This document shows positions 15,335-50,828 of a DNA stretch of 64,000 nt, one piece after another; positions within the stretch are counted from its first letter, which is position 1, and the number at the start of each line of letters is the position of its first letter. Origin of the DNA: Eledone cirrhosa. Its lineage: Eukaryota. The notes beneath the pieces were generated by a model. The model saw only the letters and a list, made by a program, of their open reading frames with translations. It did no database searches and was not told the origin of the DNA. The position numbers were made by a program, and so were the translations under genes. The stretch is from positions 123,628,001-123,692,000 of the forward strand of contig OZ024742.1 in the NCBI GenBank assembly GCA_964016885.1. The letters are read 5' to 3'.

Positions 15335-16190
15335 CTTACTTACTCCTATTACCCACTCTACTACCCTAAGTATTGAGTACTTTGGTGTGTTATGGTCCAC
15401 CTGGTTCCTTACCACTTTTCCTTCGCTATATATATATATATATATATATATATATATATATATATATATTTCTTTATGTATGTGTAGGTATGTGTGTATA
15501 TATATATATATATATATGTATGTGTGTTTGTGGGGGGGGGGCATATGTGTATATATATATATGCGTGTGTGTGTGCGTATACGTGTGGGTGTCTGTGTGT
15601 GTGGGCGGGTGGGGGGATTCTCTGTGTGACCGATATATTGTATTAGCAACTTGGAAGACCAATGGAAACATTGTTTCCTCGGTCCGATTTGACGAATGTC
15701 GATCGTTCCTAAATATATTCAGAATGTAGAGAAGTGAGACACACGGGTTGATTATATATTATAGTAAAAAAGAAGAAAAAAACAGAAGAAAACGGTCGAG
15801 GTGAACACATAAACAGAACCAACTCATTTTTCCAATGCTACATCCACTATTAATAGTAACACAGCTATGGTCAACTCCAAGTTGAAATACAGAAAACGAC
15901 AAACAAAAATGTGTCCATTTCTATATATATGTATGTAAACCATGTTCTTTTCCCCAGCCATATTATTTTTTATATACAATTTAATTTCATTATGCCCTTC
16001 CGTCGCATGAAGATGCCTATACGTTGAAACCGATATGAAAATTACGGAAATTCCTATTTTGTAAATAAATGTTTTGCTGTTATTCTGAAAGAAAATCCCT
16101 TTAGCTTTTTCTACTGTTTTTACTTTTTTACTATTATATATATATATATATATAAATATACACGGGTGTGTATGATTTTGTATAGAAGAT

Positions 16191-16528
16191 TATATTAATA
16201 AAAGGAATTCCAACTTTGTCTGATTTACTCGTTTTATTTACAATCCTTTAAAATTTATAATGGTATTAGAATAAAATAGTATGGTAGAATATTAAATGTT
16301 AAGTCTTAATTCAACAAGTAATTTCATGCTTTCGCAATCTTCAGGGTCATATTCTGTCACCACAGAATATGACTCTGAAGATTGCGAAAGCATGAACGTA
16401 CTTGTTCAATTAAGACTTAACATTTAATATTCTACCATACTATTTTATTCTAATACCATTATAAATTTTAAAGGATTGTAAATAAAACGAGTAAATCAGA
16501 CAAAGTTGGAATTCCTTTTATTAATATA
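16191..16528. repeat. Near-perfect fold-back (about 167-bp arms, 4-nt loop) with HHR-like core in both arms
   Basis: Centre ATTCTGT-cacc-ACAGAAT at 16351-16368; CTGAAGA-T-TGC gaaa GCA-T-GAA(A); (TA)n on both sides. Confidence 0.9.
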
Positions 16529-16556
16529 TATATATATATATATATATATATACATA

Positions 16557-16605
16557 GCTTCTACAGGACTAGAACTGTTTCATCCGTGAGAAATCATCAG
16601 GAAGC
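16557..16605 (-). ncRNA. Type I hammerhead ribozyme
   Basis: Minus strand gcttc-CTGATGA-TTTC tcac GGAT-GAAA-CAG ttctagtc CTG-TA-gaagc. Confidence 0.8.
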
Positions 16606-17754
16606 CTAGTATTGAGTACCTTACTTACTGTGGTTACCTCCGATTCAACCCGGAATAAATTATATATATATATATATATATATATATATATATATATATA
16701 TACATATATATATATATATATATTAATATATAAAATGAATATATATATATATATATATATATATATATATATATATATATATATATATATATATATATAA
16801 TTAAAAGTTTAACAAGGTTCAATGAATTCATCAATTAATAAAGTTTCACAACAGATTATAAGCACTCTACAGTAGGTTTTCTGGAGTTATTAATATTACT
16901 TCAAAATATTAATAAATATAGACATTCATGTTATCAAATATATTTTATTATACATATTTCAGAGATACTGAGCTATTTCAACAGTACTTCCTCATCAGAT
17001 AAAATAAGTTGATGCTTGTCATATCTTGACTATGTTGATGGTTATAATTTAGTCATGGCAGTGATTAGTTATGACAAAACTCGATATTTATATACCTTAA
17101 GTTGAAACATGAAAAATTACATATTATTAACTATTACTCAAATCCCCCTAAATCCATGAAAAATGCAATAGTCAATAGTGTTCAAAAACGCTTAACTAGA
17201 TTATCTGCTAATAAATCCATTTTTGATGAAAAACCTGGATATTATAATGAGGCATTACATAAGGCAGGATATAAAAATAATATTGAATATCTAGATAATA
17301 CTAATTTGAATTATAAATTAGGTAAACATATGAATAACATAAATAAAGTGGACTCTAAAAATTATTTAAATATAAATAAGAATAATTCTCGGAAAAAAAT
17401 CAGAACCAAAGCAGTGATTTGGTATGCACCTCCTGCATATTTAGCTATAAAAACACCCCTGGCAAATTTATTCTTTAAGGCTTTAGATAAATGCTTTCCC
17501 AGCACACATTATTACCATTATATATTCAATAGACATACAATTAAGCTTATCATACTCAACAACTATGAATATGGTACAGAACATTGCAAAAATAAATAGT
17601 AGAATTCTTAATCATAACCAAAAAACAATTAGGGAAATGGCAATATTAACATTAGCAATAATATTGATACTGTGAATAACAATAACATTAACTTAAGCAC
17701 TCACAACAGAACACCTCCAAATATTAGCAATGATATCGTGTACAGTTTAAATTA

Positions 17755-17941
17755 TAATAATTGTTTCTACTTTAGGCACAAGGCCAGCAATTACCCAGTG
17801 CATTACTGGTACTTTATTTTATCGACCCCGTAAGGATGAAAGGCAAAGTCAACCTCGGCTGGATTTGAACTCAGATCGTAAAGGGACGTAACTATGCTGG
17901 AAAGCATGGCATCCGTCCCTCCACCGATACTGCCAATCCAC
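17755..17941 (-). mobile_element. tRNA-derived SINE (family 1) in the PLE linker
   Basis: Reverse complement of 18483-18668. Confidence 0.85.
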
Positions 17942-18482
17942 AATAATAACAGTAAATCGAAATGTAACTGTAGAAATAGATCGAATTGCCCTCTGCAAAA
18001 TAATTGTCTTAATAAGAACCTAGTTTATAAATGTCCCATTTAAGCAAATAACATCACCTACAACTATATAGGAGCAACCTCATCGAGCTTTAAAATATAT
18101 TCGAATCACAAACATCCTTTTTCGAATCCGGATAAGAACTTCTCCACTTCTTTATCACAACTAATATGGTCCTTGAAAGACAAACATTTAGAGTACTCAA
18201 TACTTTGGTCAAAACTCTGTAATAGCCAAGTCTACACTAATTCATCCGTATCCCCTAACTGCAATCTTTGTGATATGGAGACCCTATTAAGAATTACTAA
18301 TTATGATAAGTTAATTAACAAAAAAAGTGAATTATTCTCAAATTGCTTGCACAAAGCTTCACAAAAATCAGGAAAAAACATTGAATAAATGTGAAATGAT
18401 GTAGACGTTTATTAATAACTCTGAGTGTGAAACAATACTGTCTCAGATTAAAAATTATTGTAATGCTTGTATTATTTATACG

Positions 18483-18668
18483 GTGGAGTGGCAGTATCGG
18501 TAGAGGGTCGGACGCCATGCTTTCCAGCATAGTTACGTCCCTTTACGATCTGAGTTCAAATCCCGCCGAGGTTGACTTTGCCTTTCATCCTTACGGGGTC
18601 GATAAAATAAAGTACCAGTAATGCACTGGGAAATTGCTGGCCTTGTGCCAAAAGTAGAAACAATTATT
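18483..18668 (+). mobile_element. tRNA-derived SINE (family 1)
   Basis: TGGCAGTATCGG box A, GAGTTCAAATCC box B, GACTTTGCCTTTCATCC..GGGGTCGATAAAATAAAGTACCAGT core. Confidence 0.85.
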
Positions 18669-48600: not shown

Positions 48601-49395
48601 ATGAAAGAAAATTTCGTTCTACATGGCTGAATAGAATAAATGTAATCTGAGTTTTAAGAATATTAATAATAACATTCGATTCGTTTGCAATTATGCAAAC
48701 AAGCCTCAGTCACTGTGTATTTGTGAAAATAGCATATATTTTCACTAGCTCTGACAGTTTACCATGTGAACAGTGAGCTGTACTGATGAAGTTTGATACC
48801 CAGAAACATTAGTGCCTGCAGTTCTGTTCGCATGCCAACATAAGAGCAATAATGAAGTGTTCATGCTACTGACATGGCTATACAATTGAGGCTTGTTTGC
48901 ATAATTGCAAACGAATCGAATGTTACTATTAATTATCGAAAAACTCAGATTACATTTATTGTATTCAGCCATATACAGCGAAATTTTCTTTTTTATTTGA
49001 ATTTGGCAAAGCCGGCCATTTATCGCTCTATACAGGAAACTGACTGGCCAGTCTGCTGATATGCAAATCTAGCTGATCAGTGGATCTGCTAATATGCAGA
49101 TCTGACTGATCAACCAGTCTCCTAATATGCAAATCAGGCCGATAAGTCACTGTGTATTTTTGAAAATAGCATATATTTTCACTAGCTCTGAAAGTCTGTC
49201 AGGTGAAGAGTGTGCTGTACTGATGAAAGGTGATACACAGAAACATTAGTGTCAGCAGCTCAGTTTGCATGCCAACATAAGAGCAAGAATGAAGTGTGCA
49301 TTCTAGTGACATGGCTATAAAATTGAGGCTTGTTTGCATAATTGCAAACGCATCGAATGTTATAATTAATATTCGAAAAGCTCAGATTGCATTTA
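48601..49395 (+). mobile_element. Non-coding retrozyme-like element: two direct HHR-bearing repeats plus an inverted terminal arm
   Basis: 48707-48955 repeated at 49145-49395; 48601-48710 inverted to 48885-48992; CTGATGA at 48783 and 49220. Confidence 0.75.
49214..49259 (+). ncRNA. Type I hammerhead ribozyme (paralogue at 48777-48821 has GCC in place of GTC)
   Basis: gctgta-CTGATGA-AAGGTGATACACA-GAAA-CA ttag TG-TC-agcagc; stem II weak. Confidence 0.6.
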
Positions 49396-49768
49396 TATAT
49401 ATATATATAGGTTTGTTGGTATACCACTGGATAGAACTGGCCATTCCATATAGTCAACCTTGATGTAATATTAGGGAGAGCACTCGACGTAATGCAACTC
49501 ACCTGTCTTCCTTTGTCTTGTTGGTGGTGCGAGTACGGAGTTAATTATTATAAAATAACAAGAGGCTGGACTGGTGTAAGTCCTTAAAGGTTTATTATAC
49601 TAAGAACATTTCAATGACCGGGTTCAGTATGAATCCGGTGACATTCGAAATTTAACAGAGGAATATAATAGACACAATCCATAGTGCTCAAAAGGCAGAG
49701 ACACAAGAAGGCGACCAAACATTTAGCAGTTTCTTGACGGCGGCCGACCGAAATAAATTAAATTTCGA

Positions 49769-49826
49769 ATACCTGATGATGTCATCGGATTCATGCTGAA
49801 CCCGGTCAATGAAATGTTCATAGTAT
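49769..49826 (+). ncRNA. Type I hammerhead ribozyme in inverted element 49410-49877
   Basis: atac-CTGATGA-T..extended stem II..T-GAAA-TG tt CA-TA-gtat; arms 49546-49655 and 49758-49877. Confidence 0.8.
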
Positions 49827-49952
49827 AACAAACCTTTAAGGAATTACACCAGTCCAGCCTCCTGTTATTTTATAATATATATGTCTATATATGTTGATTT
49901 AAAACTGAACTATCCACAAGTGTTTTTTTAGCCTTCATATCATGTCCTCCTG

Positions 49953-50019
49953 TTTTATCTGATGAAAACACAAATATTATTGCATGATGATATTTGTTTT
50001 TGAAATGCGCATAATAAAA
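49953..50019 (+). ncRNA. Type I hammerhead ribozyme in a solo PLE terminus (49885-50065)
   Basis: ttttat-CTGATGA-AAACACAAATAT..ATATTTGTTTTT-GAAA-TGCGCA-TA-ataaaa; palindromic stem III. Confidence 0.85.
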
Positions 50020-50143
50020 TACATGAACTCCTTTAACCATCTTTTGTTCTTATATATTATGTCTATATATATATATATATATATATATATATATATATAT
50101 ATGAATAAAAAAATGGCGAGCTGTGTTCTTGCAATTATGTATA

Positions 50144-50395
50144 ATAAATGAAGAATTAGAGATAGAATTTAGGAATATATGTTATCAGTTGTCTACTAGC
50201 CATCATAGTTATTTCTTCGCATTACAGACAACATATCTCCAGCTAGGGCGATGCAATAACTAAAATAAGTTATTGGGATAAAAAGAGTTGGATGGAGAAA
50301 GAGAGACATGTAAAAGACAGTAATGCGAAGAAATACCTATGATGGCTAGTAGACAACTGATGACGGATGTTCCTATCTTCTAATTCTTCATTTAT
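50144..50395 (-). mobile_element. Short (TA)n-bounded inverted element related to 58644-59375
   Basis: Arms 50144-50225 and 50320-50395; shares TAATGCGAnGAAATAnCnATGATGG..ACTGAnGAnGGA with the 58.6-kb repeats. Confidence 0.65.
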
Positions 50396-50828
50396 ATATA
50401 TATATATATATATATATATATATATATATATATATATATATATATATACATATACATATACATATATATATATATATATATATATATATATATATATATA
50501 TATATTAAATGGAAAACATTACGAAATTTCATTTCTCACTCATAGTACGGCTGTTACTTAAATATAAGTATGTATACGTACATACATATATGTATACAGA
50601 CGTACAGTAGTATATATATATGTATGTATGGATTTACCGAACATTTATTATAATGCTCGGTTTGTTTGTAAACAAACATCCGGAATTAAGCCGTACAGTG
50701 TTTAGCAACCATCGTTGCCCTTTTGTTCAACACTGACTCACTCGATATGCAAATTTGGCTGCTCAGCCGTTAATATGCATAAGGAAAGTATATACTTTCA
50801 GACGTTCAAACATCTGGCAGGAAGGTAT

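Follow-up and report, generated by a model that had tools for sequence, protein, structure and literature searches.

Twin hairpins at the ends of Hydra-clade Penelope-like elements in the genome of Eledone cirrhosa

Hairpins and element ends in the window

The stretch of DNA considered here (the window) comprises 64,000 nucleotides (nt) of the genome of Eledone cirrhosa (assembly GCA_964016885.1, contig OZ024742.1, positions 123,628,001 to 123,692,000 of the forward strand), a genome of 3 Gb that is AT-rich and rich in (TA)n. It contains pieces of Penelope-like elements (PLEs), whose inverted ends come in two forms, one stopping at (TA)n and the other carrying an additional tail. An earlier note, made from the letters of the window, had drawn attention to a bulged hairpin, ACTC-stem-two nt-GAGT, at the start of the tail. 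We find this hairpin to be the first of two copies of a motif in the 5' untranslated region (UTR) of elements assigned to the Hydra clade, a group of PLEs of aquatic animals. The twin-hairpin motif is real and clade-wide, and element ends lie just upstream of its two copies.

The motif has the consensus RCTC-stem-TH-GAGY-RCT. Six strong examples, at 15355, 16861, 21784, 24246, 32324, and 49479 (Table 1), agree in letters and coordinates with those of the earlier note, and each is followed 40-80 nt downstream by a (TA)n run. (Positions are those within the window, L-numbers denote loci of the same genome, and F-numbers, A, A', and B denote element families.) The tail-less partner, said to stop just upstream of ACTC, does so 4-5 nt before it for 15355, 16861, 24246, 32324, and 49479. 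The example at 21784 had likewise been paired with a tail-less partner as if in one insertion; its partner, at 50062, lies 28 kb off, and the two are therefore separate insertions. The long loop at 49479 was considered as a one-off insert and rejected, since it is shared across family F6.

Two weaker versions, at 25677 and 50535, are not retained as members: both were missed by the covariance model described below, and that at 50535 lacks one arm. No tail-less partner for the family of the former was found among 30 loci; continuing copies of this family have ACTC right after the tail end but no full second hairpin. Upstream of this look-alike, at 25790-25935 (-), is a hammerhead-like core with a stem II of about 90 nt. 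A search of the whole window with Rfam at the gathering score gave 0 matches, with the hammerhead at 16940..17012 also escaping it.

Table 1. Hairpins, element ends, and associated features in the window
Feature	Positions	Strand	Remarks
Tail-less inverted partner of the F0 end	11349..11785	-	Stops 5 nt before ACTC position
Hydra-type endonuclease fragment within F0 insertion	13782..13977	+	E 1.2e-14, profile A1
Hairpin 1, family F0, tailed end	15355..15381	+	Tail to about 15428; also covariance-model match
Family F4 tail fragment starting within hairpin 1	16606..16660	+	Fused to inverted piece 16554-16606 (-)
Hairpin 1, family A	16861..16887	-	Hypervariable loop patch at 16870-16876; tail to 16800
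Minimal type I hammerhead, inverted pseudo-long terminal repeat (pLTR) of family A	16940..17012, core 16976-16998	-	Pattern scan and sequence
Family A Hydra open reading frame, broken, 5'-truncated (reverse transcriptase thumb, endonuclease)	17075..18360	+	Split by another repeat
Family A 3' pLTR, hammerhead core 19904-19926	19775..20014	+	Ends tail-less at (TA)n, 5 nt ahead of ACTC position
Hairpin 1, family F12, solo tailed end	21784..21811	-	Hammerhead core 21872-21918
Hairpin 1, family F7	24246..24272	+	Alternative register via second ACTC at 24251; tail-less partner ends 24002 (-)
Look-alike, doubtful, not counted	25677..25708	-	ACTC/GAGT but no inner pair, no RCT
Hairpin 1, family F4	32324..32345	-	GAAT in place of GAGT in this copy
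Tail-less partner of 32324 end (F4)	32395-32458	+	Hammerhead core 32401-32423
Hairpin 1, family F6, long upper part	49479..49541	-	Tail-less partner 49779-49874 (+)
Not the motif	50535..50563	-	ACTC arm absent
Additional hairpin 1, family F3, GCTC/GAGC form	55001..55049	+	Covariance-model match; absent from earlier note's list
Additional hairpin 1, family F3, GCTC/GAGC form	56811..56859	+	Covariance-model match; family's hairpin 2 in L121

A second hairpin and the position of the element ends

Full-length copies from three families carry in their 5' UTR, in this order, the hammerhead, hairpin 1 (the motif as it appears in the window), a spacer, hairpin 2, and the ATG. Hairpin 2 has the form GCTC..TT-GAGC-GCT, with the ATG 15-40 nt further on. 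Tail-less ends lie 2-5 nt before hairpin 1 and tailed ends 3-7 nt before hairpin 2. Terminal copies never include hairpin 2, and because it is never copied into a terminal end it was invisible to the earlier reader. The view that the hairpin marks the end point stands for the tail-less end, which keeps a fixed small distance from it, but the tailed end needs the second hairpin for its explanation. Hairpin 2 was seen right after the tail end also in F0 (L244), F3, F8, F26, F29, F31, and F13 (L105). In family B (L201-L220), hairpins 1 and 2 are similar in sequence, as if from one duplication.

The ends are clustered just upstream of the motif, as predicted. For loci of the same genome with both hairpins, 43 of 64 rows end 2-9 nt before a hairpin (30 before hairpin 1 and 13 before hairpin 2). 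The other 21 comprise 5 hairpin-1 ends where a TA match runs on to +1, 5 tailed copies in which an indel or the loop patch breaks the ungapped match, 8 artefacts of TA probes, and 3 subfamily differences. In family F0, all 25 partner ends found in 30 loci stop at one same base, and in loci from metagenomes the ends clear of contig edges (6/6) lie 0-6 nt before a hairpin. The target and each element end have in common a short TA-like stretch. The tails, bounded by the two hairpins, measure about 70-145 nt.

Two loci, L184 and L206, have a 5' end on (TA)n exactly at the site before hairpin 1 (site 1), just upstream of the open reading frame (ORF). L206 both begins and ends at site 1 and so is of unit length, and such a product fits a tandem or circular template.

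When outward-facing inverted ends are counted, in overlapping loci mostly picked by their tailed copy, 131 of 137 pairs combine a tailed with a tail-less end, 4 are tail-less on both sides, and 2 (one place counted twice) are tailed on both. One tailed and one tail-less end is the outcome expected of one complex using each site once. Long insertions, judged by eye, carried the tail at the 3' end in 7 cases and at the inverted 5' end in 7.

Conservation and covariation

Contigs from metagenomes were scanned for related elements, giving 77 Hydra-type loci; in 43 of them, 190 nt or more precede the N-terminal motif. At least two boxes were present in 35 of these 43 UTRs, one in 7, and none in 1, while none of 400 control windows from ORFs had two. 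Most of the UTRs with a single box are interrupted by a junction, and the one without any carries a GTTC/GAAC variant. The consensus in the metagenomes is GCTC-stem-T(T/C/A)-GAGC-ACT at both places, with a spacing of 55-83 nt. Protein identity is only 31-48% and the spacers cannot be aligned, but the boxes hardly change.

The motif is clear in 3 of the 6 deposited Hydra consensus sequences of Craig et al. 2021 (PMC8557442). Hydra-1_Ajap (sea cucumber) starts 2 nt before hairpin 1 and has both hairpins, and Hydra-2_Amil (coral) and Hydra-2_Ajap end in hairpin 1 plus the tail. Hydra-1_Amil, Hydra-1_Obim, and Hydra-1_Crog have degenerate forms only.

The inner stem had been said to covary, and it does. 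In hairpin 1, inner pair 2 is formed in 32 of 38 rows and inner pair 3 in 27 of 38, where shuffles gave means of 21.6 and 14.5, respectively, and none of 5000 shuffles reached either count (rows were filtered on inner pair 1, not on pairs 2-3, and the counts ignore relatedness). Double changes, counted on an alignment of 33 of 37 mid-length hairpins from which near-duplicates had been removed (A2), filled 26 cells as against 8.2 in shuffles, a comparison that ignores relatedness and includes one pair that had served as the filter. The outermost pair also varies among families of the same genome (A-U in 13, G-C in 12, G-U in 1).

Enrichment in the genome

An 800-kb sample of the same genome, outside the window, served as background. 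It holds 38 instances of ACTC..GAGT with a 3-bp inner stem and a 2-nt bulge, compared with 12, 15, 9, and 12 at bulges of 0, 1, 3, and 4 nt, so this register is singled out and the 2-nt bulge is indeed kept. A (TA)n run lies 30-160 nt downstream in 29 of the 38 but in 5 of the 48 at other registers (copies of the same family are not independent). One family, in the region of L051:7224 and L092:8433, shares the outer stem and has a bulge of 1 nt.

A covariance model trained solely on hairpins from the metagenomes (i.e., on elements of other organisms) placed four of the six strong examples within its top six matches in the window (E 0.04-1.2, weak values because the motif is short), missed those at 32324 and 49479, and added those at 55001 and 56811. 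In the 800-kb sample it gave 54 matches, 42 of which have (TA)n 20-110 nt downstream, compared with 8.4% of random places. The remainder consists mostly of internal copies, of a tandem array, and of tails that end in other repeats.

Inverted pairs with unequal ends were also sought without reference to the motif, yielding 88 pairs that fall into 38 clusters. As judged by eye, and with some clusters being artefacts, the motif opens 19 of the 38 tail clusters, GCTC/GAGC and GTTC/GAAC forms included; tails of about 40 nt lack it.

Affiliation of the elements

According to Craig et al. 2021 (PMC8557442), the Hydra clade is marked by RWK, by DKT in place of DKG, by the lack of GxKF/Y and of CCHH, by a CxCx5C linker, and by CxxC and CxH around a conserved E and N. 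The element ORFs studied here, that of L244 included, have RWR and DKT motifs, and a linker CNCRNKSNC (CxCx5C), CDLC (CxxC), and CRH (CxH) can be made out by eye. Also as in the Hydra clade, a hammerhead lies in the pLTR and insertion is into (TA)n. Intact ORFs of 732-742 amino acids, present in 19 of 20 family B loci, are single and encode a reverse transcriptase (RT) followed by a C-terminal endonuclease (EN). With its many intact ORFs, family B is a young Hydra family. On these signature motifs, the motif families tied to an ORF are assigned as Hydra-clade PLEs.

Such a tie to a Hydra ORF exists for A, A', B, F0, F3, F4, and likely F19, and only scattered links for F6, F7, and F12. Family F0 is an autonomous Hydra family through L244 (E 6e-137 against profile A1), and the same profile covers the window pieces 17094-18360 of the family A ORF. 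The families with the motif had been taken for unrelated; those tied to an ORF all belong to one clade. Nor is the motif a general end signal of PLEs: it is carried by 19 of 38 tail clusters, and three tailed families without it (F1, F11, F35) are linked to CCHH-type endonucleases of other clades. Another motif-less family, F10, lay near a Hydra piece, possibly as a neighbour, and six were without a link. Six 9-mers of the motif, compared with the Naiad and Chlamys consensus files, gave 4 matches, all in coding-looking sequence.

The sole species-named homolog of the element protein is from a cephalopod. With a protein piece of the window as query, 40,851 first-look candidates were found in the same genome, indicating that the elements are very abundant. 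Pfam assigned no family to the ORF piece at 17075-17596 of the window.

A variable patch in the loop of hairpin 1

In families A (L002-L030 and 16870-16876 of the window) and A' (L141-L170), a patch of 2-7 nt in the loop of hairpin 1 differs in nearly every copy. Over 30 copies of family A, 2.7% of positions are off the majority, while three loop columns reach 43-50%, and each of these shows three or four different bases. The patches of 25 copies come in 18 distinct versions, and among 131 pairs of copies with nearly the same flanks only 4 agree in the patch. In family A', 27 copies have 22 versions, T- and A-rich. The patch differs in 11 of 11 inverted pairs belonging to one insertion and agrees in the one same-strand pair. 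No majority original sequence can be discerned beneath it.

Of the 18 5' truncation points in A', 11 fall within -24 to +6 of hairpin 1, indicating that in this lineage the hairpin is an obstacle or a break for RT; family B shows no such cluster at hairpin 1. The patch probably consists of untemplated bases added by RT stalled at hairpin 1, although this is a guess. Or perhaps it derives from an RNA end within the loop, or is a scar of DNA repair. Two further ideas were rejected: that the hammerhead cut site is the variable junction, and that the patch is a general step of the cycle, as loops are invariant in F0, F6, F7, and F12 and mildly variable in B (the searches concerned favour identical loops, but the near-invariance of F0 holds in an unbiased sample too).

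Other features of the window

The copy at 16554 stops about 20 nt short of the usual end site. Small fold-back insertions lie at 16166-16553, 22905-23205, 48604-48991, 50147-50392, and 50621-50994, some with hammerhead cores and several from motif-less tailed families. Both arms of the F0 insertion contain arrays of a 35-bp tandem repeat in the region of the 3' UTR (11791-12349 and 14625-14905). A short interspersed repeat forms an inverted pair (17756-17954 and 18470-18668), the first member of which breaks the family A ORF; it has relatives at 403 and 43989. A separate non-LTR retrotransposon occupies 26649-30603, with a Myb/SANT-like ORF that falls below the Pfam cut-off and, after it, pieces of RVT_1.

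Discussion

Docking of RT had been suggested in the earlier note for the one hairpin, and the two hairpins are probably docking sites for RT on the sense RNA, setting two internal starts on nicked (TA)n, and this would explain the tail of PLEs. Beginning from what can be observed (the twin layout, its conservation and covariation, the positions of the ends, the TA-like stretch, and the pairing of tailed with tail-less ends), one may infer the following course. One RT would bind each hairpin, probably as two subunits on one RNA, and the endonuclease would nick both strands of (TA)n. Each DNA 3' end would then pair with the handful of A/U bases immediately 5' of a hairpin, from where it would be extended towards the 5' end of the RNA. 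A start before hairpin 1 would give the tail-less end. From a start before hairpin 2, copying would run through the spacer and hairpin 1 at the outset, so that the tail corresponds to the distance between the hairpins. Either start could serve for the long or the short complementary DNA (cDNA), and joining of the two cDNAs by their truncated ends would yield the inverted pair. A tandem or circular RNA cut by the hammerhead could supply both hairpins; a circular template has been proposed earlier (PMC4209133). In families A and A', RT passing hairpin 1 would probably stall and add untemplated bases, producing the variable patch.

In its most specific form the proposal is a tentative one: an RT dimer, seated on the twin hairpins of one RNA, might prime the two strands of a (TA)n break simultaneously, with the spacing of the hairpins setting the tail and the insertion built from both ends, and in one lineage RT moving through hairpin 1 might rewrite the loop at every insertion, making it a natural barcode for the individual copying event. 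A homodimer prediction for residues 1-480 of a Hydra RT scored 0.00, from which no verdict was drawn.

Several observations weigh against docking at two hairpins. The selection of loci by their tailed copy bears on the pairing count, and the unbiased set is small (12 pairs tailed and tail-less, 2 both tail-less, 0 both tailed). Inverted partners sometimes differ so much (at 2-13 of 58 nt) as to hint at two template RNAs, which strains the step calling for one. Hairpin 2 is the weaker of the pair: in F4 it is only weakly present, the families of 21784, 24246, and 49479 yielded no internal copy that could show it (30 loci for each), it often has just one or two inner pairs, and its pair 2 is paired in 20 of 38 rows, a count that 261 of 5000 shuffles equalled or exceeded. 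As to structure, the central CTC/GAG pairs are near-constant and so say nothing for it, hairpins taken singly do not exceed shuffles in stability (z -1.5 to +0.3), and in only 2 of 9 does the minimum-energy fold show the proposed one in full. A comparison of G-U with A-C mismatches, meant to reveal the folding strand, gave 6 versus 2 in the same genome and 16 versus 12 in the metagenomes. Weak stability of the lone hairpin fits a site held by protein but does not prove one.

The motifs may act instead as DNA. If the GIY-YIG endonuclease recognized them in cDNA or an intermediate and cut just before them, then the ends would be cut points and the tail a product of resolution. This we consider unlikely, but it has points in its favour: Craig et al. 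2021 (PMC8557442) ascribed the tail to EN-mediated resolution, and Frangieh et al. 2024 (PMC11167929) reported that recognition by the endonuclease of D. virilis depended on the tail. GCTC..GAGC is an inverted repeat, the mismatch counts given above single out neither strand as the one that folds, and the loop patch could be a repair scar. Against cutting stands the sequence inside the repeat: its length varies between 4 and about 50 nt, and it shows the covariation of a stem, unlike a site read by protein in duplex DNA. The ends meet (TA)n through short TA matches, as they would from priming, the patch has no majority original sequence beneath it, and starts in vitro coincide with genomic ends in Poseidon (PMC11167929).

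It is improbable that the antisense RNA is the template and that the hairpins are stop signs, akin to the template boundary of telomerase, before which copying ends. An antisense template has been proposed for the Penelope elements of Adineta (PMC3846280), on the antisense strand the hairpins are placed as a boundary would be, and a few A-C mismatches on the sense strand would there be G-U. The ends on the side of the hairpins, however, are exact on (TA)n and the far ends scattered, the pattern of a start and not of a stop. Moreover, the hammerhead sits on the sense strand, and sense RNA was the template in the published assay (PMC11167929).

We give little credence to a role confined to translation or transcription of the ORF (e.g., ribosome entry on an uncapped RNA cut by the ribozyme), with ends falling nearby merely through A/U-rich stretches. 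The location of both hairpins in the 5' UTR, the second mostly 15-40 nt before the ATG, speaks for such a role. But A/U-rich stretches are everywhere in the UTRs, and yet in many families with unrelated spacers the ends fall within a few bases of the hairpins. The non-coding tandem unit in L096, considered below, also retains the motif. A second role in translation would not exclude docking of RT. Finally, the families share ancestry and single matches of the model have weak E-values, but that the motif is inherited sequence without function, or chance, is scarcely credible given covarying stems, twin boxes in 35 of 43 UTRs, changes of the outer pair, and boxes that stay nearly invariant amid proteins 31-48% identical and spacers that cannot be aligned.

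Small structured RNAs that bind RT and fix the start of copying are familiar from the 3' UTR of R2, the stem-loops of eel UnaL2, and the bulged epsilon hairpin of hepadnaviruses. All of these are single sites, located at the RNA's 3' end or templating from the bulge. The putative Hydra site differs in being doubled, internal, behind the start point, and outside the part copied.

A close likeness is found in Poseidon PAc of Anolis (Frangieh et al. 2024, PMC11167929). There, RT acting in vitro on sense RNA starts within a stem-loop, at two sites that delimit the tail. At AT-rich sites both strands of the DNA are cleaved and extended, and the protein is predicted to be a dimer. The elements considered here would share with PAc two internal starts downstream of the hammerhead with the tail between them, both starts in our case being deduced from ends. 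PAc has one AC-rich stem-loop, within the ORF, for which the text reports no conserved motif or covariation, while in Hydra elements a single motif, conserved in the clade, occurs twice in the 5' UTR, with one copy behind each proposed start.

Compared with the Hydra clade as known (PMC8557442), the elements are alike in their single ORF of about 740 amino acids, C-terminal GIY-YIG-type EN, hammerhead, (TA)n targets, pLTRs, and optional tail. The text available names no hairpin and gives a tail of 30-40 bp, arising from EN resolution, while tails here measure about 70-145 nt; family B copies, with their long 3' UTR, reach about 3.8 kb, above its 'generally <3 kb'. The earlier note knew of no description of the motif. 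No prior description of the twin hairpins was found in the literature searched, which left out subscription papers, Repbase reports, and older Penelope papers, so the hairpins are apparently undescribed so far and add a new cis element to elements of a class already known. Internal initiation at two sites bounding a tail is not new, having been published for Poseidon (PMC11167929).

Non-LTR retrozymes of animals are non-coding tandem units derived from pLTRs that are thought to use the proteins of PLEs (PMC7229834; bioRxiv 10.64898/2026.07.22.740005). The accessible portions of both papers name no cis signal for RT, and the hairpin is a candidate for one. In L096:517-3628 are six head-to-tail non-coding units of 616 bp. 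Every unit contains hairpin 1 and, besides it, two degenerate boxes, as well as a hammerhead-like core that has one base too many. This array looks like a Hydra-derived retrozyme.

PLEs are the closest mobile relatives of telomerase, and how they choose their start and come by a tail on one side has been approached so far in one in vitro system. A short RNA signal found throughout a clade offers exact predicted start sites for such work. The twin hairpins also mark the boundaries of Hydra elements for annotation, and the hairpin is a possible cis signal for non-coding passengers such as retrozymes. If the hairpin suffices for docking, then it would provide a 30-nt handle by which chosen RNAs could be loaded onto an enzyme that targets (TA)n and inserts on both strands.

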